64,000 nucleotides of DNA from Nostoc sp. DedSLP01 (GTDB taxonomy: Bacteria; Cyanobacteriota; Cyanobacteriia; Cyanobacteriales; Nostocaceae), in contig JAVRCJ020000011.1 in NCBI GenBank assembly GCA_034530875.2, forward strand, positions 64,001 through 128,000, read 5' to 3'. The position numbers and the translations under genes are program-made. The notes beneath the pieces are model-generated. The model searched no databases. It was not told the origin of the DNA and worked only from the letters and a program-made list of their open reading frames with translations. Shown here piece by piece: positions 22,746-46,241 of this stretch (position 1 is its first letter; each line of letters starts with the position of its first letter).

Positions 22746-25037
22746 ATGAAGCTTGTGTTGTATAAAAAGTTGTCTCTGCGATTTATTTTAGTTGTTCCTT
22801 TTGCTCTACAAGCTTTGATTTTAGTGGGATTAGTGGGCTATATATCTTTTAGAAACGGTCAAAAGGCAGTGAATCAGTTAGCCTTAAGGTTGGAGCAAAA
22901 GGTCAACCAACAAGTCGAACAACACTTGAATTCTTATCTAGCAGTTCCTCGGCAACTTCATCAAATTAATGCAGATGCGATCGCTAAGGAAGTAATTGAT
23001 ATTCATAATTTTCATAAAGCCGGTAATTATTTCTGGAAACAAGTTCAAGTTTATAAAGATATTAATTTTTTAGGATGTGTTTTATCTAATGGTGAGATGA
23101 TAGGTGCAGGTCGATGGTTGAAAGATAAAGGAGTGACAATTGAGGAGATTTCCACCAAAACGAACTATAAAGCCTACAGCTATGCTACAGACGTTCGAGG
23201 CAGTCGGATGCAAGTTGCTTTTATTGATAACTATAAACCCTTAGAAGATGACTGGTATACTCAAACTGTAAAGGCAGGTAAACCGATTTGGAGTTCAGTA
23301 TATCCAGCCCAGAGTGATATTGCAGACTACGTTGCTATTTCTGCTAATCACCCAATCTACGATAAAAAACACCAATTGCTCGGCGTATTAAATATTGATT
23401 TGCTTTTATCAAGCATCACAAATTTTGTAAATCAGTTAAATGTCAGTCCTTCTGGTGAAGTTTTAATCATTGAACGTAATGGACTTACGATCGCTAGTTC
23501 TGCTGATGAAAAACCGTTCCATGTAGCCAAGGGTCAACTTAAACGACTTCATATTTCTAATAGTCAAGATCCTAAAATTCGAGCTATAGCTCAACAACTG
23601 CAAAAAACATTTAGAGATTTTCAGACCATTCAATTTAGCCAAAACTTAGAGTTCCAATTCAATGGCGAACGTCAATTTGTTCAGATTACCCCTTGGCAGG
23701 ATGAGCTTGGCCTGAATTGGCTAATTATTGTTGTCCTTCCCGAACGTGACTTTATGGGTGAAATTAATGCTAACAAACAGACTACAATCTTACTTTGTAT
23801 AGCCGCCCTAATAATAGCGATCGCACTGGGATTGCTCGCCTCAAAGTGGATTATTCAGCCAATTTTAAACTTAGATAAAGCAAGTGCAGCAATTGCTGCT
23901 GGAGACTTAGAGCAAGTTGTTGAGCCTAACACTCTTAAAGAACTTAGTGGTTTAGCTGACTCATTCAATCACATGGCTCAACAGTTACGAGAATCTTTCG
24001 CAGTACAAGCTCGAATCTATATTGAACTAGAAAAAACCAATGAAGAACTAGAATTGCGAGTAGAACAGCGCACCCAGGATTTGCAACAAACTCTCAAAAA
24101 TCTCCGCAAGGCACAAGTGCAACTTATACAAATAGAAAAAATGTCTAGCCTTGGACAATTAGTTGCTGGTATTGCTCACGAAATTAATAATCCTGTTAAC
24201 TTTATTTATGCTAATCTTCAATATGCCTCTGAATATAGTCAGGGTTTACTCAAGCTGATTGATTTGTATCAGAAAGAATACCCTCAAGCAACTGCGGAAA
24301 TTCAAAAACAAATCAAAACTCTGGATTTAGAATATGTGCGTCAAGATTTACCGCAAATATTTAACTCCATGAGTACTGGCTCTGAGCGGATTCAAAATAT
24401 TGTTTTGTCATTACGAAACTTTTCTCGTTTGGATGAAGCCGAATTTAAAATTGTAGATATTCACGAAGGAATTGATAGTACTTTGATGCTCCTGAAGAGC
24501 CATTTAAGTTCTACTTCGCTACATCCAAATATTAAAGTTATGAAGAATTATGGCAGACTGCCTAAAATTGGCTGTTATCCAGGACAGTTAAATCAGGTGT
24601 TTATAGCTTTAATTATGAATGCTATTCATGCCATTGAGGAGGAGACTAGGAATGGTAAATGGCTTAAAAAAAAGGAAGAGGATTTTAAAGCTAATTTAGA
24701 AAATAAAAGCCCAAATCTCAAACCGAGAATTAAGTCCTCTCCTTGTATACAGATTAATACAGATATCATCGATCCCAATTACATTAAGATTAGTATTATT
24801 GATAATGGAATTGGGATTCCACTAGAAATTCAATCAAAATTATTTGACCCATTCTTTACAACTAAAGAAGTTGGGAAAGGAACAGGGCTGGGATTATCTA
24901 TTAGTTATCAAATTGTAGTACAACAACATGAAGGAAGTTTAGAAGTTAATTCAACTCCAGGGGAAGGAGCAGAATTTATTGTCACACTACCTGTTAAACT
25001 CAATGCAAAAAAAGGTGAATTATTAATTAGCACTTAA
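22746..25037 (+). CDS. Membrane sensor histidine kinase (Cache-HAMP-HisKA-HATPase)
   Basis: Two TMs around a periplasmic domain (WY..GKPIWS), HAMP, AHEINNP, DNGIG, FDPFFTTK, GTGLGL. Confidence 0.95.
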   Translation: MKLVLYKKLSLRFILVVPFALQALILVGLVGYISFRNGQKAVNQLALRLEQKVNQQVEQHLNSYLAVPRQLHQINADAIAKEVIDIHNFHKAGNYFWKQVQVYKDINFLGCVLSNGEMIGAGRWLKDKGVTIEEISTKTNYKAYSYATDVRGSRMQVAFIDNYKPLEDDWYTQTVKAGKPIWSSVYPAQSDIADYVAISANHPIYDKKHQLLGVLNIDLLLSSITNFVNQLNVSPSGEVLIIERNGLTIASSADEKPFHVAKGQLKRLHISNSQDPKIRAIAQQLQKTFRDFQTIQFSQNLEFQFNGERQFVQITPWQDELGLNWLIIVVLPERDFMGEINANKQTTILLCIAALIIAIALGLLASKWIIQPILNLDKASAAIAAGDLEQVVEPNTLKELSGLADSFNHMAQQLRESFAVQARIYIELEKTNEELELRVEQRTQDLQQTLKNLRKAQVQLIQIEKMSSLGQLVAGIAHEINNPVNFIYANLQYASEYSQGLLKLIDLYQKEYPQATAEIQKQIKTLDLEYVRQDLPQIFNSMSTGSERIQNIVLSLRNFSRLDEAEFKIVDIHEGIDSTLMLLKSHLSSTSLHPNIKVMKNYGRLPKIGCYPGQLNQVFIALIMNAIHAIEEETRNGKWLKKKEEDFKANLENKSPNLKPRIKSSPCIQINTDIIDPNYIKISIIDNGIGIPLEIQSKLFDPFFTTKEVGKGTGLGLSISYQIVVQQHEGSLEVNSTPGEGAEFIVTLPVKLNAKKGELLIST

Positions 25038-25038
25038 C

Positions 25039-25139
25039 TATAGCAATCCTATTTAATTTACAAACCATTCGTGGAGGCAGGGAATAGGGAATGGGGAATG
25101 GGGAATAGATGTGTTTGCAACTCTTTTAGGACTGCTATA
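25039..25139. mobile_element. MITE-like element, TATAGCAATCCTA TIR family
   Basis: TATAGCAATCCTA...TAGGACTGCTATA with STRR inside. Confidence 0.75.
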
Positions 25140-25224
25140 AATAAAATTATCTGTATGTAGCGTTTATGTTTGATTTGACTCAACTCACATTCTTTTCTGT
25201 TTCCTAACCCAAGAATAGAGCTTT

Positions 25225-25992
25225 TTAACGGGATTTTACGCCACAAGCAAAAATTACATAAAAGAAACCTGCTTCGCATTCTGGCAGTTGCCTAACTCTG
25301 ATATCTACATCAAAAAAACCATTATCCCAAAAACAATTGAGTACATCTTGCGGTTCTAGCTTAGTTGAAGGAAAATATAAGTCGGCTACTCGATAAAATG
25401 TTCCAGAACCACAAGCTGATGTAATTAATGTTCCTCCTGGCTTCACCATACTCATAATATTGCTCATATAAATACGCCAGGAATCTCGATTGGGACTGAT
25501 ACCTTCAGCGCAGTAGTGAGCTGTTACTAATGGATAAAATTCTCGCTTTTCTAAACCTAATGGATTTGTTTCTCGAACATCGCCAGGTAATAATTGCGTA
25601 ATCTGCTGTCGAATTTTTTGCTCTCTATTTTCTATATCTGTTTGTGTAGGATTCAGATTACCTTCTAAACGCAGAACTTCTGAAGTAAATTGTCGCCAAT
25701 TAAAAGCATCTGATTGATTTTTTACCCATTTTTGTAACTCAGATAAATTCGATTCTAAATACTCTGATACATGAATTTCTGCCGCTTTAGTTGCTAGTGG
25801 TAATATATGAGAAACTATGGGGCCGCTACCAAAATCTAAAGCAACTGGAACGGAAGAAACTCGCCGCAGCGATTCGACCAAAAATTCTAGACAAAATTTT
25901 TCATCATCCATAATACTTGCATAATATTCTCCAAGGTAATCTTTGGGGTTCCAAGCAGTATATTCAGCGTATTGCAGATTAGATGTTTGCAT
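25225..25992 (-). CDS. NNMT/PNMT/TEMT-family SAM N-methyltransferase (GntF-like)
   Basis: WNPKDYLGEYY, LDFGSGP, SEYLESNLSELQKW, FNW, GDV, YCAE, VKPGGTLI, FYRV match the NNMT-family motif order. Confidence 0.85.
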   Translation of the reverse strand: MQTSNLQYAEYTAWNPKDYLGEYYASIMDDEKFCLEFLVESLRRVSSVPVALDFGSGPIVSHILPLATKAAEIHVSEYLESNLSELQKWVKNQSDAFNWRQFTSEVLRLEGNLNPTQTDIENREQKIRQQITQLLPGDVRETNPLGLEKREFYPLVTAHYCAEGISPNRDSWRIYMSNIMSMVKPGGTLITSACGSGTFYRVADLYFPSTKLEPQDVLNCFWDNGFFDVDIRVRQLPECEAGFFYVIFACGVKSR

Positions 25993-26108
25993 TTAATGCA
26001 CCTTTTGATTTACTAGTGTTGACTGGCCCCTTTGGGGCGGGTGTAGTGAAAATTTCCCTACACCCCACACCCTTTTCATCTGTATGCTTTTGCTACTATA
26101 GTTCCTAA

Positions 26109-29100
26109 TTAAATTGAATGGGAAAAACAGTTAGATTGGGGAGCTTCTAAAAAGCTACTTTCGATAAAATAATTTAAGTAAGTCTCGAGCAGGTTTTTGT
26201 CGGCAGCTGGACACTCGATCGCAGCACCATGCAATCCCTCAATTGTATTGCTACAGTCAAATACCTGAGTTCCAGCTAACCACAGTTCTAAGCGAGTGCA
26301 TTTATCATCTGCGATCGCCTCGGTAATTACTGAAGCTAAGGGAGCAAGGGCATTTTGTCTTTGTTTAATCGCAGTTTGCCATTGCTGGTAAGGTACTTTT
26401 TGAATAGAGTATCCAAAAGTGTTGAGCGCCTGAATCAAGTCGTCCATAGCCAAAGGTTGGGGATTGACTAAATGGAAAGCTTGGCCTATGGATTGTGGCT
26501 GTCGAGATAAATGCACGATCGCTTTACTGACATAATCCACGGGAGTCATATCGATGGTCAAATCGAGATTGGGAGCTTGTTGCAGTCTAACCATCGCCTC
26601 AATCAAACAACTAATTAAATCAGTTGTGTTACAGCTTCCCGTCTGGCTATGTCCGGTTACCATTCCGGGTCGATAAATGCAAACGGGTAAGCCTCTAGCA
26701 GCAGCCGAGGTAACTAACTGTTCTGCAACCCATTTACTTTGGGCGTAGCCGCCAGAAATTCCATTTCTGTGAACAATACTGTCGTTTTCATAGATAACTG
26801 GAACGCCTTTAGCTGCTAAAGATTCAAATACATCTAGAGTCGAAATGTAGTGTAGAGGTTTAGATTTACCGCTATTTGCTAGTTTTATAATTTCGTGGGT
26901 ACCCATGACGTTTGCAGCGTGCAAAGTCGCGTAGGGATAAAGTAAATTGACGTTTGCACCACTGTGATAAATCGCATCGATGGAGTCGGCTAGTGTCTGA
27001 AACTGTTGTTCCGTCAAACCTAATTTTGGTTGTGCTAAGTCACCTATGACTGGAATTATCCGCGTGTAAAATGCTTCAAATCCAGAAGAAAAATGTTGCT
27101 TGAGGCTATGGCGGAGTTTCTGATTTGCTTGGGATATGTCTTCGGCACGTACCAGACAATAAATTTTCGCTTGCGTTTGCTGCAATAGTTCGTAGAGTAA
27201 AAATCTACCGATAAATCCAGTTGCGCCAGTTAAGAAAATTGCTTCTGGTTCGGTTGATTGTGTAACCTGAGAAAAACGATATTGAATAGCGTTGTCAAGG
27301 ATAGCTTCGGCTTGGAGTTGTTGTAAAGTCATCCTTTCGGTAGCAGCTTGGACATCTGTACAGCTACGTTGAATCAAGCTTGCTAATGCAGCAATAGTTG
27401 GGACGTTCAAAAATTCTATTAGCGGTACTATTACTTGGTAAGCTTTTTCAACTTGAAAGATTAATTGTGTAGTTCGTAGGGAATCACCGCCTAAATCAAA
27501 AAAGTTGTCGTTGATTCCAATACCGGTAATTCCCAAAACCCCAGACCAGAGGTTAGCTAACTCTTGTTCTAAATCTGTACGCGGTGCCACGAATGCTGCT
27601 TCTAATGCTGGCCGATCGCAACTTGGAGCAGGTAGAGCCTGGCGATCGATTTTACCATTTACAGTCAGGGGCAGGGAATTGAGCAGCACGATTGCCGAAG
27701 GAATTATGTAACTTGGTAATTTACCTTTGAGATCCGAACGCAGTTGAGATACCAAGTTATGGGATATTTTGCTTTGTAAGGGATTGTTGGCGTACAGATG
27801 CCAGGGTTTGGATGCGAGGGGTTGAGCTAATGGGATGGCTGGCGTTGTGTAATGTTCGTTAGTGGAGTTATCTTGAAGCAACACATCATAATAGCCTTGT
27901 GAATTAGCTCCTGAATAACTAATGGCGATCGCATAGCCTGTTTCTTGGCTCAGTTTGCATAATGCTTCTGGATCTACACCTATCTGTTGGTTTATCCCAT
28001 TGACAGCTTGTCGCAACTCACCGACTGTTTTCGGACATTCAGAACTAGATAACAATTCGACTGTTTTGACATCAGCAATAACCTTGGCATGGGGAATAGC
28101 TCGAATACCTAAAATTGGCGGTTTGGTATCTTGCAAAAGCTGCTGTACAGATGACACAGATAAGTTTTGCTCCTGCCAGTTTAACCAAACAGAATTAATC
28201 GGTGTAGAAGCCTTTTGCCCAATTTCCAAAATTACATCGTAGCGAAAGCGATTGAGTTCATTGTCTGATTCACCATGTTTGATGCAAATACGGACTTGAT
28301 GAATTTCTGGGTATTCTTGCCCAAGTGCGTAGAAGAAATCTGGATCGATAGTCAGTTCTTCCTCTTGCTGCAACCGTTGCTCTACTTTGTGTCGTAGTAC
28401 CTCGATTGGTTCCTCATCTTCAGTTTGATAAAGTTCTATTGAGGCTGCAAAGGCTGTTAATAGTCCGTAACTCCGTATATCCCCGAGAAAAATGCATCCA
28501 CCCGGCTCAACGACCTTTATGGCTTCTGCCAAGACTTCCATCAGATAAGCCACACTGGGGAAATATTGGATCACAGAATTGATAATTACTGTATCGAAGG
28601 AGCAAGAACCGATTGCTTGAAAATCATGGGCAGGGCTTTGGTAAAGGCTGACTTGCGGTAAACTCAGTTCTGGTTTGGCAAGTTGTTGTTGTACGTAGTT
28701 GAGTGCGGTTTGTGAAAAATCAGTACCCAAATATTTTTGGCAGTGGGGAGCGACTCTAAACAACATTAACCCCGTACCGCAACCAATTTCTAAGACGTTT
28801 CGGGGTTGCAGCGACAAAATGCGATCGACAGTTCGATCCACCCATTCTTGCATTTGGACATCGGGAATCATTTGGCCTGTATAGCTGTCGAACCAACCAC
28901 TAATGTTAAATGTAGATTGCCAGCGATCGCCAACTCCATTGAATTCATCGGAGTCGTGAATCATCCGCCATTGGTCGATTTGTTCGTTTTCTAGAGTGGA
29001 CGAGTTAAAAACATCGGTAGTTTCAGCAGCCAAGTTTGGTACTACATAAGCAACCAATCTGCGATCGCCAGGTACATCTTCTCTGACAATTGCGATCGCT

Positions 29101-30431
29101 TCTTGCACGTTGGGATGTTGTTCTAAAGCCGTCTCTATTTCATTTAGCTCAATCCGGAAACCTCGAATTTTCTGCTGTTCGTCAACTCGATGTAAGTATT
29201 CCAGATTCCCATCTTCACGATATCTTACCCAATCGCCCGTTTTATAAAGACGAGTATTGCCTGAATGTTGGTGAGGATTGTTAATAAATTGAATAGCTGT
29301 GAGGTCTGGACGATTTAGGTAACTCCGTGCTAAACCTGCGCCAGCAATGTACAACTCCCCTGCGCATCCGACTCCCACCGACTGCAATTGCGCATCTAAA
29401 ACGTAAGTACGAACGTTATCTATTGGTTTACCAATAGGTAAAAACTCGCTGTCTATTGCTACTGCATAAGGGCCAGCCAAATCGCAAACTGTTGTCACTA
29501 CTGTTGCTTCAGTCGGGCCGTAGGTATTTACCAATCGGACATGAGGCTGAGTATGTTTTCGCCAAACTTCTAGCCAGCTAGGTAAGGCGCGTTCGCCGCC
29601 AATTATGACTATGCGTACAGATTTTGGTAATTGTGTGTGCGGTAACTCTGCACAGATTTGATGCCAAAAAGCAGTAGGCAAATCCAGTACTGTCAAATCC
29701 AACTCTTGACAAGCTTCTAGAAATGCCGGAATCGAACGCAGCATCTCTTGAGAGCGCAGTACTAGCGTTGCTCCTTGGGTTAGAGTCGTAAAGATTTCTT
29801 CTATAGATGCATCGAAATTAATTGAAGAAAATTGTAAAATGCGATCGCCTTTGTTAATTCCATATTCTCGACTCACGGATTGGATAAAATTACTCAGCGC
29901 TCCATGTTCGATGCTTACACCCTTGGGTTTGCCAGTGGAACCAGAGGTGTAAATGATATAGGCTAAATTATCTAAATTTGTTACAGATTCGGGGTTTTGT
30001 GTACTTTCTCGAGCAATAGTTTCCCAATCTGCATCTAAACAGATGGTAGTTGCATTGTGGTTCGGCAACTCTGAAAGGTATTTTTGCTGAGTTAATATAA
30101 TCGGAACTTGAGAATCCTCAAGTATGAAAGCAATTCGTTCTTGGGGATAAGTTGGATCGAGGGGAACGTAAGCTCCACCCGCCTTGAGGATTGCTAACAA
30201 ACCAACAATTGTTAAGAGCGATCGCTCCATAAATATACCGACCAACGTTTCAGGTCTAACCCCAAGTTTGCGTAGGTAATGAGCTAGTTGGTTTACCTGT
30301 TCGTTAAGTTCTCGGTAAGTATATTCTTGGGTTGCATACTTAATTGCGATCGCATCTGGAGCTTTGGCTACCTGAGCTTCAAACCAACTATGAATAGATG
30401 AATTGGTAACAATGCTTTCTACTGATAACAT
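26109..30431 (-). CDS. Stand-alone NRPS-like enzyme: A(interrupted by N-MT)-PCP-thioester reductase
   Basis: A motifs YTSGSTGKPKG, YGPTE, YKTGD, KIRGFRIEL, NGKIDR; MT VLEIGCGTG between A8 and A9; PCP FFDLGGDSL; R domain FLTGATGFIG, GYAQSKW, YRPG; no C domain. Confidence 0.95.
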   Translation of the reverse strand: MLSVESIVTNSSIHSWFEAQVAKAPDAIAIKYATQEYTYRELNEQVNQLAHYLRKLGVRPETLVGIFMERSLLTIVGLLAILKAGGAYVPLDPTYPQERIAFILEDSQVPIILTQQKYLSELPNHNATTICLDADWETIARESTQNPESVTNLDNLAYIIYTSGSTGKPKGVSIEHGALSNFIQSVSREYGINKGDRILQFSSINFDASIEEIFTTLTQGATLVLRSQEMLRSIPAFLEACQELDLTVLDLPTAFWHQICAELPHTQLPKSVRIVIIGGERALPSWLEVWRKHTQPHVRLVNTYGPTEATVVTTVCDLAGPYAVAIDSEFLPIGKPIDNVRTYVLDAQLQSVGVGCAGELYIAGAGLARSYLNRPDLTAIQFINNPHQHSGNTRLYKTGDWVRYREDGNLEYLHRVDEQQKIRGFRIELNEIETALEQHPNVQEAIAIVREDVPGDRRLVAYVVPNLAAETTDVFNSSTLENEQIDQWRMIHDSDEFNGVGDRWQSTFNISGWFDSYTGQMIPDVQMQEWVDRTVDRILSLQPRNVLEIGCGTGLMLFRVAPHCQKYLGTDFSQTALNYVQQQLAKPELSLPQVSLYQSPAHDFQAIGSCSFDTVIINSVIQYFPSVAYLMEVLAEAIKVVEPGGCIFLGDIRSYGLLTAFAASIELYQTEDEEPIEVLRHKVEQRLQQEEELTIDPDFFYALGQEYPEIHQVRICIKHGESDNELNRFRYDVILEIGQKASTPINSVWLNWQEQNLSVSSVQQLLQDTKPPILGIRAIPHAKVIADVKTVELLSSSECPKTVGELRQAVNGINQQIGVDPEALCKLSQETGYAIAISYSGANSQGYYDVLLQDNSTNEHYTTPAIPLAQPLASKPWHLYANNPLQSKISHNLVSQLRSDLKGKLPSYIIPSAIVLLNSLPLTVNGKIDRQALPAPSCDRPALEAAFVAPRTDLEQELANLWSGVLGITGIGINDNFFDLGGDSLRTTQLIFQVEKAYQVIVPLIEFLNVPTIAALASLIQRSCTDVQAATERMTLQQLQAEAILDNAIQYRFSQVTQSTEPEAIFLTGATGFIGRFLLYELLQQTQAKIYCLVRAEDISQANQKLRHSLKQHFSSGFEAFYTRIIPVIGDLAQPKLGLTEQQFQTLADSIDAIYHSGANVNLLYPYATLHAANVMGTHEIIKLANSGKSKPLHYISTLDVFESLAAKGVPVIYENDSIVHRNGISGGYAQSKWVAEQLVTSAAARGLPVCIYRPGMVTGHSQTGSCNTTDLISCLIEAMVRLQQAPNLDLTIDMTPVDYVSKAIVHLSRQPQSIGQAFHLVNPQPLAMDDLIQALNTFGYSIQKVPYQQWQTAIKQRQNALAPLASVITEAIADDKCTRLELWLAGTQVFDCSNTIEGLHGAAIECPAADKNLLETYLNYFIESSFLEAPQSNCFSHSI

Positions 30432-31681: not shown

Positions 31682-33973
31682 CTATCGTCCAACGGCAGCT
31701 TGATATAAAGATTGGATAGTTAGTCCATCGGTGGGATATTCAGCTACAGCAAAATTACATGTTACCTGAAAGCGATCGCCATCAAAAGCGGTAAAGATTT
31801 GCTGGCGTAAAGTAGTTAAAATTTCACTCAGGCGATGGTTGATTTCTGTTTTTGTTAACCCAGAAATTCCCACTACAAAATCTCCGTTACCCCAATAACC
31901 TAGCACTTCACCGCTACAAAATGTCGATTGAAATAAACGACTCCATCTTTGTAATACTTGATTGCCAGCTTCATGACCATATTTAATATTAATTTGGCGT
32001 AAATCATTTACGCTTAAAATCGCCAAACAAACAGATTGCTGATTTTTCTCGGCTTGAGTAATTAAATGTTCTAAATTGCGACGAGAATGGAACTGATTCG
32101 CTACTCCAGTTAAAGGATCTTTAGTAGAAAGCGACTGAAGTAAACGGCTGCGTTCTAGGCGATGGGTAATGCGTGCTAATAATTCTGCCCCAACAACAGG
32201 TTTAATCACATAATCATCTCCCCCAACAGCAAACACCTGCTGTACAATTTTGATTTCTCGATGAGCAGTGAGAAACACAATCGGTAATTCTTGCCATTGA
32301 GGATCGGTACGAACTGCTTGACAAAGTTCAATACCGTTGATTTGGGGCATATCTACATCTAAAATCAACAAATCCGGCGTAGTAGATTGCAGTACTTCCC
32401 AGAAACGTAACGGATTGTCCAATGCTGTCATCCGCATCCCCCAAGGTTCTAACATTGGGCGCAGTGCTGCTAAAATCAGGGGGTCGTCATCTACTACCAA
32501 TACATTTATTCGTAAGGAACGAGTACGTTGTAGTAGTTGAGACGAAACATCCCACACCTGAGCCGCTGTCACAGGTTTTACTAGAAAGCCACGCGCCCCG
32601 CACTGAGCAAGAGTGACGCGTTCTACTAACTCATCATTTCCAGCTAGCACCAACACGGGTACGGGTGGAGTACGTGTTGCTAATTCTGATACTAATACTA
32701 AACTTTCTTGGCGCTGCCCTACTTCATCGACATTTAGTACTACTAAATCTGGGGATGTAGTTTGCAAAAAGTTTTTAGCATCCTCTAAATTTATAATTTG
32801 CTGCCAACACATTCCCGTGCATTCAACGAGTTTTTGCAACTGAGAACCTAGTTGTGGATTGGGGTCAATTAATATTAATTGGCTACAAATTTCTTGGGCG
32901 ATCGCTGTAGTTTGATTATCTACCTTTTGCCCCATTTGATGAATTAATTTACCCAAATCTTGAATCAGCGTCAGCAATTGCCGCTTTTCACGTGAAGGCA
33001 AATCCCCATCTTTTCCTAAAATCTGTTCGATTTCCCGCGCTATCTGAGTGCCATTGTCTTGTTCAAACATCCCCAAGACACCAGCTAATTTGTGCGCCTC
33101 CCGTTCTGCGGATTTGCGTAATTCCTGAGTTAAGGTTTTGTTAGAAAGTCCAGCTGCCAATTGTTCCAGCACACCCAGCCGTTGCAACATCAACCCTTCA
33201 TATTGTTTCCACAAGCCACCCATTGCTTGTTGAAACTGCTCCTCAACAGGAGGACTTACAACTTGCGCTTTTTCTTTCTCCCCCTGCTTCCTCTGCTCTC
33301 CTTTTCCGGGATTCAGCCGATATCCCAAACCATATACGTTTTCAATCCAGTCTACGGCTCCAGCTGCTTTTAACTTTTGTCGTAAGTATTTGATGTGTGA
33401 TTTTATAGTTTCTTCTTGGGGCGGATCGTCAAAAGTCCACAAATGCTCAATGATATCGCCGCGACTAAAAACACGCGATGGATTGCGGAGAAATAACTCC
33501 ATTAAGCTGTATTCTTTGGCTGTTAATTCTAGTAGTTTGTTGTTATAGGTGACTTGGCAACTACTCGGATCTAGTCTGAGTGCGCCTACTTCTAGTATCG
33601 AGGTAATGGGGCGATCGCTTCGACGTAATAGCGCCCGTATCCTTGCTTGTAGTTCTCCCAAATCCAAAGGTTTAATCAGATAATCATCTGCACCTGCATC
33701 AAGTCCCTGAATCCGTTCTTGAGTACCATCTTTCGCCGTCATCAACAGAATCGGAGTAAAACACCCGCCAGAACGTAAGCGCTGACACAATGTAATTCCG
33801 TCCATTTTCGGCAATCCTACATCTATGAGCAACAGATCGTAGTTGGCATTTTGGGTGTATTCCCAACCAATTTGTCCGTCTTGTGCTATATCGACAACAT
33901 AGTGTTGTTTAGTCAGAGACTTCAACAAGACACTTGCTAAAATTTCTTCGTCTTCGATTAGCAAGATTCTCAT
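31682..33973 (-). CDS. Multidomain response regulator REC-wHTH-HPt-REC-REC-GGDEF(degenerate)
   Basis: MRILLIEDE/DVGLP/GADDYLIKP; OmpR-type IENVYGLGY; AHKLAG; LDVDMP; DPLTG with WGNGDF replacing GGDEF. Confidence 0.92.
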   Translation of the reverse strand: MRILLIEDEEILASVLLKSLTKQHYVVDIAQDGQIGWEYTQNANYDLLLIDVGLPKMDGITLCQRLRSGGCFTPILLMTAKDGTQERIQGLDAGADDYLIKPLDLGELQARIRALLRRSDRPITSILEVGALRLDPSSCQVTYNNKLLELTAKEYSLMELFLRNPSRVFSRGDIIEHLWTFDDPPQEETIKSHIKYLRQKLKAAGAVDWIENVYGLGYRLNPGKGEQRKQGEKEKAQVVSPPVEEQFQQAMGGLWKQYEGLMLQRLGVLEQLAAGLSNKTLTQELRKSAEREAHKLAGVLGMFEQDNGTQIAREIEQILGKDGDLPSREKRQLLTLIQDLGKLIHQMGQKVDNQTTAIAQEICSQLILIDPNPQLGSQLQKLVECTGMCWQQIINLEDAKNFLQTTSPDLVVLNVDEVGQRQESLVLVSELATRTPPVPVLVLAGNDELVERVTLAQCGARGFLVKPVTAAQVWDVSSQLLQRTRSLRINVLVVDDDPLILAALRPMLEPWGMRMTALDNPLRFWEVLQSTTPDLLILDVDMPQINGIELCQAVRTDPQWQELPIVFLTAHREIKIVQQVFAVGGDDYVIKPVVGAELLARITHRLERSRLLQSLSTKDPLTGVANQFHSRRNLEHLITQAEKNQQSVCLAILSVNDLRQINIKYGHEAGNQVLQRWSRLFQSTFCSGEVLGYWGNGDFVVGISGLTKTEINHRLSEILTTLRQQIFTAFDGDRFQVTCNFAVAEYPTDGLTIQSLYQAAVGR

Positions 33974-43793: not shown

Positions 43794-46241
43794 ATGGTTC
43801 ATATCTTTGATTTAACAGGAATAGCTTCATCTGATGCTCTCAAATTAAAACTAGAAAATATAGATGTCGTTACGCCAAATCCAGGGATTTACTTAGACCT
43901 TGACCATGATTTGCACTTAAATTTAGATAAACTTTTTAATATTCATAGTTCAGTTCCATATATTAATGTGGCGATCGCTAATATTATTACTACAATATTT
44001 GGCAAATCTGAAATTAAAATATCTGCACCAAAATATAGAATTTTTCAAAGCGATCGAGTAGTTGAGCTTAGTTTTAAAGGGCTATTCAATAAACAAGATA
44101 TTGAACTAATATTTGGTAATTCCCGAATATTAAAATATAAATTGCCTAAAAAGGTTAATTTTGCCAGTTTAATGAATCAAATTCCTATCATCAAGGATTT
44201 AAGCTTAAGCAACACAGAATTAATTATAACTAATATTGATTATCCTTTCGTTCATCCAAAGTTAGGCACTATTAACTTAAATAGAGGATTTAACTTTATC
44301 GGAGACGTTGATTTAAAAAAATTGCAGATAAATTATAGTAATTTTATTTATCAAAACTTAAAAATTAGTAGTTTAGGAGTGCTAATTAGTCTCAATCCCG
44401 TGGGAAAGGTTAATTTAATAGGTAATATTCCAGGCAATGTTGAGCTAATTTCCCAACAAGAACTTAAGGCTACTTTTAATAATTTGCTCATAGGATTAGA
44501 TATTGGATCTGATTTAGAGCCAAACTTAGGATTAACAGGAAATCTAATTCTTCAAGGCTACGATCCCACCCAAAAAAACGAACCTAAATTATTTCTTTCC
44601 GGTAATGTCTCTCTAGAACCTGAATCCTTAACAGCATTCTTTTCTCAACAAAGTGAAAAATCCTGGCTTAATCCCTATGGGTTAGCGGGAACTGAACTTC
44701 GGAATGTTAGGTTCCAAGGAGGTGGAACGTATTTACCTCCGTACTTCGATAACTTTGGTTTTATTGGTGATTTGAAATGGCAAAAAATAGACCTGGAAGT
44801 TGCATTCCTCATGGATACTAACGATCCGGAGAAATTAGCTTTAGTTTTAAATCCTAATCAAGCAGTTAGCTTAATAGATTTGTGGCGGGGGCCAGTCGCT
44901 TCTTTCATTGCCAAAGATGTAGGTTATTCAATTGATTTGGTTACCAAAACGCTAGAATTTTTAGAAAGCTTAGTAAACTTAAATATCGAACCAATTGATG
45001 GGGATAAAGACGGAAAACTCAATTCTTTAATTAAATATGTTCCTTTTCCCACAACAATTGCAGGTCAACCGATATCAGAAGGCTTAGAAATTAATGGCAA
45101 AATTAATGCTTGGGGACATGAAGCAATATTAATTTTTGAAAGCGACAAAACTCTCAAAAATATTGGAGGTTCATTAAAAGTTGTTGAAATCGATTTAGGA
45201 TTTTTAAAAGTTAAAGGAACGGATGATAATAGTTTAGATTTAGCTCTCAAGGTAACGCCCAACGAACAGTATCTTCAAGGAGATGGTTATGTAGAAATTT
45301 TTGGAAATGAAATTGCAAACGTTGAATTTACTATTACCTCTAATACTGCTAATTTTAAAAACTTTGACCTGAATTTAGCTAATTTGTTGAGTATTGATGT
45401 TGACGCCTTGAGTATAGATACTAAATCTGGTAATGGTAGTGGCTCAGGAACGATTTCAATTTTAGGGAATACGCTAGCAGGTATTACGTTTGATGTTACT
45501 CAAAATAGTATTGATCTGAAAGACGTCCAGCTGAGTTTAATAGGTTTCTTAACTATTACTATTCCGACTCTCGCAGTTGACTTGGTAAATATAAGTGCAA
45601 CAGGAACAGCAAATATTATTGCTTTCAATCAATCTTTGGGCAGCGGCACTTTATCATTTAATAGTCAAAACATTGCCATTAATAACGTTACTCTTAATTT
45701 AGTCAATGTTCTGAAACTGAATGTTCCTAATTTCAAGCTCGATTTAAGGAATAAAAAGATTTTTGGTTTGGGCGATATTACAATTCTTGGCAAACAATTT
45801 ACTGCCTTAGGTATCAGCCTTAATGAAAGTGGGTTTCAAGCTACAAGTAATTTAAATTTTGGAATTTTAGCCTTCAATAGTGCTACAGTAACTCTGAACA
45901 AAGGTAATAATGGTAATATCAATAATTTTGCTTGTATTGCAGGAAATCTCAAGTTTCTGGGCTATACTTTTGCCAACATAACAGCTAGTTTGAATAGCAA
46001 TCAATTAACTGCATCAGGTAGCTTCAATTTTGCTCGTATTTTAATCCTTAAAGGAGCCGGAAATCAAAGAAAAGCGACAATAACGCTTAACAAAGCAAAA
46101 AATGGATTGTATTCTGTCAGTATTATTGGTAGCTTTTACCTGTTAAATAAAGAGTTAACGTCAGTTACTATCCGCCATAACAATGGAACGTTGAAAATTT
46201 TAGGAATAAAAATTATCAGCAACCCCAGGCGTACAAAGTAA
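43794..46241 (+). CDS. Large beta-rich hypothetical protein with 54-aa repeats
   Basis: 815-aa ORF; alternating hydrophobic pattern; three full repeats at 45279-45764 plus a partial fourth. Confidence 0.85.
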   Translation: MVHIFDLTGIASSDALKLKLENIDVVTPNPGIYLDLDHDLHLNLDKLFNIHSSVPYINVAIANIITTIFGKSEIKISAPKYRIFQSDRVVELSFKGLFNKQDIELIFGNSRILKYKLPKKVNFASLMNQIPIIKDLSLSNTELIITNIDYPFVHPKLGTINLNRGFNFIGDVDLKKLQINYSNFIYQNLKISSLGVLISLNPVGKVNLIGNIPGNVELISQQELKATFNNLLIGLDIGSDLEPNLGLTGNLILQGYDPTQKNEPKLFLSGNVSLEPESLTAFFSQQSEKSWLNPYGLAGTELRNVRFQGGGTYLPPYFDNFGFIGDLKWQKIDLEVAFLMDTNDPEKLALVLNPNQAVSLIDLWRGPVASFIAKDVGYSIDLVTKTLEFLESLVNLNIEPIDGDKDGKLNSLIKYVPFPTTIAGQPISEGLEINGKINAWGHEAILIFESDKTLKNIGGSLKVVEIDLGFLKVKGTDDNSLDLALKVTPNEQYLQGDGYVEIFGNEIANVEFTITSNTANFKNFDLNLANLLSIDVDALSIDTKSGNGSGSGTISILGNTLAGITFDVTQNSIDLKDVQLSLIGFLTITIPTLAVDLVNISATGTANIIAFNQSLGSGTLSFNSQNIAINNVTLNLVNVLKLNVPNFKLDLRNKKIFGLGDITILGKQFTALGISLNESGFQATSNLNFGILAFNSATVTLNKGNNGNINNFACIAGNLKFLGYTFANITASLNSNQLTASGSFNFARILILKGAGNQRKATITLNKAKNGLYSVSIIGSFYLLNKELTSVTIRHNNGTLKILGIKIISNPRRTK

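Follow-up and report, generated by a model that had tools for sequence, protein, structure and literature searches.

What does a cyanobacterium make with a stand-alone nonribosomal peptide synthetase (NRPS)-like enzyme encoded next to a small methyltransferase, and is the product a toxin, an alkaloid or a message? The question is raised by a locus of Nostoc sp. DedSLP01, a cyanobacterium with a genome of 8.57 Mb, in a stretch of 64,000 nucleotides that was analysed as a whole and is called the window here (contig JAVRCJ020000011.1, positions 64,001 to 128,000). An open reading frame (ORF) for an adenylation-thiolation-reductase enzyme with an embedded methyltransferase, A(MT)-T-R, is followed on the minus strand by a co-oriented ORF of the NNMT family. 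An original prediction had correctly described this pair, its spacing of 116 bp, the adenylation code DAEDIGTVVK and the missing condensation domain, yet by taking it for a two-gene cluster it overlooked the adjacent, conserved gene of a dCache sensor kinase. This gene is convergent with the methyltransferase gene, with 187 bp between them, and belongs to the unit as its third member, outside the boundaries first drawn:

22746..25037, plus strand: membrane sensor histidine kinase, dCache_1-HAMP-HisKA-HATPase (763 amino acids; Pfam)
25225..25992, minus strand: P0002, methyltransferase of the NNMT/PNMT/TEMT family (255 amino acids; PF01234)
26109..30431, minus strand: P0001, stand-alone NRPS-like A(MT)-T-R enzyme (1440 amino acids; TIGR01733 and TIGR01746 above cut-off)

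P0001 is predicted to activate lysine, methylate its α-nitrogen and release it reductively. The conservation of the kinase gene beside the synthase gene favours a signal with its receptor over an orphan alkaloid: judged from sequence, and with a probability of roughly 60%, the three genes would encode a signal synthase together with its own receptor, an undescribed unit and not a toxin pathway.

Linkage of synthase, methyltransferase and receptor

Linkage was followed in 12 NNMT loci from GTDB genomes and in further genomes obtained by synthase searches, giving 19 genomes with a Lys-type enzyme, 18 of them informative. Dropped from the counts were G692 (a 2.9-kb contig from a 61% complete genome), L146 (a multi-gene locus containing a condensation domain) and duplicates (L014, L019 and L049 of L003; L042 and L173 of L006; L167 of L009; L169 of L005; L171 of L010; L179 of L008). 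The NRPS gene lies directly upstream in 9 of the 12 NNMT loci, which bears out the expectation that the two genes co-occur in other genomes; L011 and L012 have a pyridoxal phosphate (PLP)-dependent decarboxylase where the NRPS is expected, and L008 has its NRPS on another scaffold. In 11 of the 12, the neighbouring gene encodes a dCache kinase. The 20 linked receptors group together as a single clade when 45 sensor domains are placed in a tree (support 89/97), and a kinase of this clade is present in the locus itself in 14 of the 18 informative Lys-type genomes (the window, L002-L007, L009, L010, L129, L150, L165, L166 and L170) and elsewhere in the genome in three more (G819, G697 and G606), so that 17 of the 18 have one.

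As a control, about 85 places with a dCache kinase were listed, G000 and G158 were set aside, and 14-19 kb around each of the 20 best remaining kinases were examined; genes related to P0001, P0002 or the decarboxylase are present in none of the 20 regions. The gene orientation is convergent in the window, tandem in L002-L010 and divergent in L129, and the link has therefore survived rearrangement. It spans several cyanobacterial families, and the system is rare and patchy: the Lys-type system occurs in 3 of 301 genomes of the host's own order, and 3 of the 121 genomes of its genus hold a relative of P0002 (E no higher than 1e-20), one of these relatives being only 29% identical. The second methyltransferase is optional, six Lys-type genomes being without an NNMT. 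A promoter and terminator scan came out at chance level (24 vs 29.1; 7 vs 7.7).

In the two decarboxylase loci (L011:7349-9823 and L012:7745-9820), the PLP decarboxylase and NNMT genes are transcribed divergently from a receptor gene that belongs to this clade, and the L011 decarboxylase has an N-terminal methyltransferase domain. The best solved relative of the decarboxylase is 4OBU, which we take to be a tryptophan decarboxylase, and this unit may make N-methylated aromatic amines. Cadaverine was considered as the product of these loci and is unsupported, given 4OBU as best relative and aromatic decarboxylases outranking the desferrioxamine-pathway enzyme.

Co-variation of receptor subtype and methyltransferase

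The linked receptors fall into two subtypes. AGRW, with G122, is found in 15/15 receptors where an NNMT is present, two of these in trans, and AQRWPP (Q, or QRW) in 5/5 linked receptors where no NNMT was found. Four alignment columns separate the G from the Q receptors; just 9 of 15,504 five-member subsets reach at least four, and among the subsets with at least three separating columns only the actual Q set has three invariant ones. The NNMT-less synthases are not one clade (approximately unbiased (AU) test, p 4.7e-97), and the sister synthases of L005 and L170 (100% support) stand beside different receptor subtypes. On the synthase tree, all four independent contrasts are concordant (p = 0.125, where a test with four contrasts cannot reach significance). 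Taken together, these patterns suggest that the receptor was exchanged when the methyltransferase was lost, as would be expected of a receptor whose ligand is the NNMT product.

Two more specific histories did not hold. Three independent G-to-Q changes in the receptor are unsupported, a single lineage not being rejected (AU p 0.33), and a replacement of the NNMT by a SET protein is at odds with the Q receptors carried by the SET loci. A SET gene is also found at L151 and L178, and in fused form in P0018.

Domain organization and substrate of the synthase

The domains of P0001, in the order of their coordinates, are as follows:

26148..27239, minus strand: thioester reductase (TGATGFIG at 1068; Y1229xxxK1233 intact)
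27375..27569, minus strand: carrier, i.e. peptidyl carrier protein (PCP) domain (GGDS984L)
27762..29021, minus strand: S-adenosylmethionine (SAM) methyltransferase inserted between A8 and A9, about residues 471-890 (LEIGCGTG at 547, NSVIQYFP at 618)
29022..30401, minus strand: adenylation core, about residues 11-470 (code DAEDIGTVV plus K927; best solved match ApnA A1, E 1.9e-50)

Pfam places AMP-binding at 16-371, AMP-binding_C from 430, Methyltransf_12 at 546-646, PP-binding at 955-1019 and NAD_binding_4 at 1066-1304; it finds no condensation (C) domain in P0001, and none is present nearby. The insert in the adenylation (A) domain measures about 430 residues, uninterrupted A domains aligning to 12-463 and resuming at about 890. 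The closest methyltransferases in the genome are embedded NRPS methyltransferases (40-48%), and the motif NSVIQYFP is presumably that of an N-methyltransferase. With A, T and R domains, no C domain, and intact SAM, carrier-serine (S984), NADPH and YxxxK motifs, P0001 takes its place among the NRPS-like A-T-R amino-acid reductases, and an ATP- and NADPH-dependent release of an aldehyde or alcohol is predicted.

Among the 120 best matches listed, 71 are 1380-1600 residues long with an N-terminal A domain, 22 of these carry the exact code of P0001, and a C domain is present in a few (P0070, P0073 and P0083). Because these 71 homologues of similar length start with an A domain, P0001 is taken to be a real stand-alone architecture and not a truncated module; a tblastn search with an NRPS query found no NRPS remnant on either flank of its gene, so the original description of a self-contained enzyme stands.

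The code positions (D207, A208, E211, D250, I276, G278, T303, V311 and V312, plus K927) were located from motifs and from an alignment with ApnA A1 (4D4G). Their GrsA numbering is the one we presume, with the ApnA A1 alignment as anchor. The pocket residues E204, S243 and A307 of ApnA A1 (PMC11253843) align with E211, D250 and V312 of P0001 at equal spacing. Arg or Tyr is the substrate of ApnA A1, the closest A domain of solved structure (code DVESIGVIA); the code of P0001 is free of aromatic residues. The closest A domain in the genome (56%) is module 2 of a 2162-residue A-T-C-A-T-E AptA-like protein from a cluster that its architecture marks as anabaenopeptin-like; the module's code DTEDIGTVV is identical at eight of nine positions, and AptA module 2 supplies lysine in anabaenopeptins (PMC8402340). 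The top NCBIfam model for P0001 is that of MxcG, an enzyme that reduces thioester-bound lysine in two stages, first to the aldehyde and from there to the alcohol (PMC8400222). The basic substrate originally foreseen is thus likely and can be narrowed: the code points to lysine as the probable substrate, with ornithine and arginine as possible alternatives.

Also in favour of lysine, lysine-halogenase-fold genes occur in two related loci, where the synthase and receptor genes enclose them together with a BurB-like SET gene (L165:12346-13604 and L166:4600-5959). The L165 protein, the one aligned, is probably inactive because the iron-binding His residues are missing.

The second methyltransferase and the GntF name

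P0002 matches PF01234 (Pfam, E 1.8e-37), as do all ESM Atlas clusters found for it, and is predicted to be a second amine N-methyltransferase. It passes the NCBI model for GntF, NF041360, with 115.7 bits at a cut-off of 60, and so do four of four further homologues tested (88-109 bits), whereas true GntF scores 613-615 bits, that of a full gnt cluster 613. GntF is described in a review as a predicted N-methyltransferase in the pre-guanitoxin one-pot reaction (PMC10673588). P0002 has in common with it the PF01234 fold, the SAM motif and a C-x-E motif at 29-30% identity, and the phylogeny against GntF that had been proposed places it in a separate clade, GntF lying on a very long branch; the model's cut-off is thus passed by a protein that is not an ortholog of gnt-cluster GntF. 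Nor does a gntA-J cluster surround its gene. GntA, GntD and GntI have no match in the genome, in keeping with the original statement that no other gnt-like genes are present in the window, and the remaining gnt queries, GntJ not among them, find only paralogues of 22-37% on other contigs. Given 30% identity to GntF and the absence of the gnt genes, the locus is judged not to be a guanitoxin pathway.

The warning that this gene could give false positives in gntF-based toxin screens applies to annotation by hidden Markov model, and the GntF name indeed stands on 6 of the 72 matches in the list of P0002 homologues at NCBI; it does not extend to DNA screens, blastn giving no significant match between P0002 and two gntF loci. 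The issue is one of mis-annotation and not of PCR cross-reaction: NF041360 names non-toxin methyltransferases GntF, and a gntF label alone is no sign of toxin potential. Among the loci compared, L017 has a complete gntA-I run. At L018 (9599-10420), one gene scores as true GntF (615 bits) and none of the seven neighbours scanned is a gnt gene; the locus is possibly a broken or scattered guanitoxin cluster.

The sensor domain of the kinase

The presumed receptor part of the unit is the following domain:

22854..23780, plus strand: dCache_1 sensor domain (AlphaFold model pLDDT 92; subtype motif A-G122-R-W124)

Foldseek confirms the dCache fold of this model and ranks no ligand class, structures of several classes matching about equally (E 1e-12 to 1e-9); the closest sequence matches are PscC and Mlp-type chemoreceptors. 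In amino-acid-binding dCache domains, an Arg binds the carboxylate of the ligand (10.1101/2023.04.06.535858). The window domain keeps the other sites of the dCache_1AA motif Y-x4-R-x-W-Y...Y...D (Y163, W170, Y171, Y186 and D218) and has D168 at the Arg site, by alignment to solved dCache domains, which places it outside dCache_1AA; the motif of the dCache_1AM amine sensors consists, in PctD, of R103, D133, W155, F188/Y189, M215, S217 and D235. An acidic Arg site fits a carboxyl-free amine as ligand and singles out none.

Asp occupies this site in 20/20 linked receptors vs 2/25 others (L047 and L052). The wider claim that losing the Arg to an acidic residue is specific to linked receptors was rejected, as it is true for Asp only and acidic residues are general. 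The host genome has only 13 dCache_1 matches. The cyanobacterial dCache subfamily of the window kinase is found in 54 of 401 genomes, and the searches made turned up no known ligand for it. Of the unlinked dCache kinases, the closest one (52%, of the Asp type) has a terpene synthase and a P450 gene divergent from it (L076:4177-6920).

Proposed mechanism

P0001 would convert lysine to Lys-AMP and Lys-S-PCP on a carrier primed by the only phosphopantetheinyl transferase found in a search of the genome, methylate the loaded L-lysine at its α-nitrogen and release it with NADPH as N-methyl-lysinol (m/z 147.149) or the aldehyde. After release, P0002 would add one to three further methyl groups (m/z 161.165, 175.181 and 189.196), and the product would be exported and bind the dCache domain, changing the output of the kinase. 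An N-methylated aldehyde, alcohol or cyclic imine had been foreseen; the family evidence tips the balance towards the amino alcohol, with the cyclic imine still conceivable.

Related enzymes and other receptors

To what extent does this arrangement recur with other amino acids? When the 20 top C-terminal matches of P0001 were fetched, 17 turned out to share the stand-alone A(MT)-T-R layout and to carry different codes, which we read as Gly, Ala or Ser. Eleven of the 17 have other sensors adjacent, namely seven dCache kinases and four amino-acid-permease fusions. A profile of the seven Gly/Ala-linked dCache kinases ranks first PacA and two Methanosarcina kinase domains (7PSG, 3LI8, 3LIB); a single-sequence search had ranked a uracil sensor first. 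PacA and 3LIB are treated as amine sensors (10.1101/2023.04.06.535858). In L131, L134, L139 and L147, an amino-acid-permease-like domain beside Gly-type A(MT)-T-R genes is fused to a histidine kinase or to PAS-GGDEF-EAL, the L131 fusion ending at a contig edge; these proteins are possible transporter-like receptors. L139 and L147 also carry a phosphopantetheinyl transferase of their own. Receptors of a third clade stand beside two A-T-R enzymes that lack the methyltransferase and have an Arg-like code.

On this basis one may tentatively, at somewhat less than even odds, envisage a modular family of cell-to-cell signalling systems in filamentous cyanobacteria: stand-alone A(MT)-T-R enzymes would make N-methylated amino alcohols from single amino acids (Lys, Gly, Ala, Ser or Arg), every one of these alcohols would be read by a dCache kinase or permease-fused sensor inherited along with its synthase, and optional methyltransferases would create dialects that force a receptor swap, the window locus speaking a polymethyl-lysinol dialect.

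Other neighbourhoods add to the variety. In L140 (11650-13468), a Gly-type A(MT)-T-R gene is followed by genes for an APH-family kinase and an EamA transporter, and the product could be phospho-N-methylethanolamine or choline-like; in L138 (12076-15237), a fusion of a major facilitator superfamily, HEAT and cNMP-binding protein comes directly after the A(MT)-T-R gene. Distant NNMT homologues in high-GC metagenomes, represented by a scan of 21 selected ORFs from 10 of the 26 loci, lie near signalling genes, with C-A-T-R enzymes (DAESIGTVV) or aldehyde dehydrogenases. The NNMT gene is accompanied by a small GGDEF-like gene and such a C-A-T-R gene in L029, L031 and L045, with a TonB receptor and a CHASE8 kinase upstream in L031. 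It lies beside an aldehyde-dehydrogenase-family gene in L020, L021, L022, L023 and L025, the pair being divergent from a membrane GGDEF/HD-GYP protein in L022, L023 and L025.

Weighing the evidence

Several observations weigh against a signal and its own receptor. The 99%-complete genome G690 has a synthase and no receptor of the clade was found in it, and some assignments are in trans (the NNMT of G407 and G697, the receptor of G606). Support for the receptor clade is moderate (UFBoot 89; 81/47 in a 22-row tree), and the window receptor itself is a long basal branch in it. To the contrast test that cannot reach significance is added the compatibility of the Q receptors with a single lineage. 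Glu stands at the Arg site in 19/25 unlinked dCache domains, so the acidic site is general in the subfamily; loss of the Arg is a subfamily trait and alone no pointer to the product of P0001. Nor are the residues exclusive, AGRW being found in two unlinked receptors (L050 and L051) and Asp in the two named above. The presence of the receptor clade beside a PLP decarboxylase and an NNMT means that the ligand class may be broad. Among the Gly/Ala-type loci, 6/17 are without a dCache or permease-fused sensor, and in the window no response regulator gene follows the kinase gene.

It is therefore worth asking what else the locus could be. The methylated amine might be protective, defensive or structural, with the kinase sensing free lysine, polyamines or a stress cue to control its production and no self-signal involved. 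Biosynthetic genes are often flanked by regulators, the receptor subfamily has its acidic site whether or not a synthase is linked, and linkage is silent on the direction of control. We nevertheless consider this unlikely: the receptor subtype shifts with NNMT loss and the receptor class with the A code, as expected if the product is the ligand and not if a precursor or stress is sensed.

The reductase might also stop at N-methyl-lysinal, which would close to 3-(methylamino)-tetrahydroazepine and then be methylated, yielding a stand-alone alkaloid with no receptor role. A free ε-amine and an aldehyde can cyclise as a matter of general chemistry, and R domains can stop after two electrons; MxcG, however, continues to the alcohol, and the Gly-coded relatives beside dCache domains resembling amine or choline sensors, like L140 with its APH-family kinase and EamA transporter, fit stable amino alcohols. 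Since it also leaves the receptor linkage unexplained, this alternative has little to recommend it, even though alkaloid chemistry as such is compatible with kinase sensing.

More doubtful again is a sulfonium route, in which the NNMT/TEMT-family enzyme would S-methylate methionine and the acidic A pocket load S-methylmethionine. The family of P0002 includes thioether S-methyltransferases, as its Pfam name indicates, some loci have a SET protein closest to the Met S-methyltransferase BurB (PMC9135737), and distant NNMT homologues lie by a decarboxylase or aldehyde dehydrogenase, as in dimethylsulfoniopropionate synthesis. Yet neither NNMT nor SET was found in G779, which has the identical code, or in G691 (100% complete), the A code agrees with that of a Lys module and contains no aromatic residue, and the SET loci share the Q receptor with loci lacking any second methyltransferase. 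Finally, a guanitoxin remnant or variant, or a last module cut from a longer NRPS, is scarcely credible: P0002 does pass NF041360 and a few homologues of P0001 do carry a C domain, but the score is 116 bits against 613-615 for true GntF, the identity, branch length and gnt searches given above all speak against it, and the C-less layout is conserved with no NRPS remnant.

Neighbouring genes

A response regulator gene (31682-33973, minus strand) with three receiver domains, a winged helix-turn-helix, Hpt and GGDEF lies co-oriented 1250 bp upstream of the NRPS gene and is a candidate partner of the kinase. Such linkage was not seen in the relatives scanned, where the kinase is often followed by receiver-kinase or receiver-GGDEF-EAL genes. 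The 1250 bp in between are rich in AT (27% GC), and GC is 36-37% in the kinase and NNMT genes (22746-25992) vs 43% in the NRPS gene and 41% in the genome. An 815-residue ORF (43794-46241, plus strand) in a low-GC stretch (33-35%) of the window has no Pfam match. About 100 kb from the unit lies an NRPS cluster of five modules (2+1+2, ending in a methyltransferase and a thioesterase; L096, G000:C11:192494-210841), which its architecture would label anabaenopeptin-like, and the host genome also has what we take to be a heterocyst-glycolipid-like cluster.

Comparison with known systems

HamD of the Burkholderia ham system, to which mgo and pvf are related, is likewise an A-T-R enzyme without a C domain and is required for a diffusible signal that derives from an amino acid and passes between cells; its substrate is reportedly valine, different from the lysine predicted for P0001. 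It takes part in making the signal valdiazen (PMC5878181), and the part of that source available mentions no dCache kinase receptor. HamD has no embedded methyltransferase and requires oxygenase-type tailoring genes, none of which are in the window locus; P0001 is flanked there by NNMT, kinase and response regulator genes and so does not belong to ham/mgo/pvf. MxcG of myxochelin synthesis (C-A-T-R) also loads lysine and takes the thioester to the aldehyde and the alcohol; unlike it, P0001 has no C domain, no catechol partners and an inserted methyltransferase, and it reaches 859 of the 2300 bits of the MxcG cut-off (NF038078). The nearest A domains, AptA module 2 and ApnA A1, come from assembly-line modules. 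P0002 shares its PF01234 fold with NNMT, PNMT, INMT and GntF, but stands without a gnt cluster and at about 30% identity to GntF. The dCache_1AA and dCache_1AM sensors (PctA, PscC and Mlp24/37; PacA, PctD and McpX) have the same fold as the window domain, which keeps the aromatic sites and the terminal Asp; it differs in the change from Arg to Asp and in an identity of only 11-21%.

No literature joining such NRPS-like enzymes with dCache kinases in cyanobacteria was found in a search that most subscription journals lay outside, and nothing relevant on the A-code strings. To our knowledge, few signal-receptor pairs are established in cyanobacteria. The locus names a candidate signal, synthase and receptor that can be tested with three recombinant proteins and defined masses, provides a ligand lead for the large dCache subfamily and, with its natural pair of G and Q receptors, offers a view of how a sensor tracks methylation.

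In CqsA/CqsS and LuxM/LuxN, a small-molecule synthase is linked to a sensor kinase. The window unit shares this logic, and the linkage and co-variation that mark such autoinducer/receptor systems are found here too (14/18 in the locus, 0/20 in controls, with a contrast test that is not significant), while synthase, ligand class and sensor domain are unrelated. The three genes form a real unit, which is probably a novel variation on synthase-plus-receptor systems.

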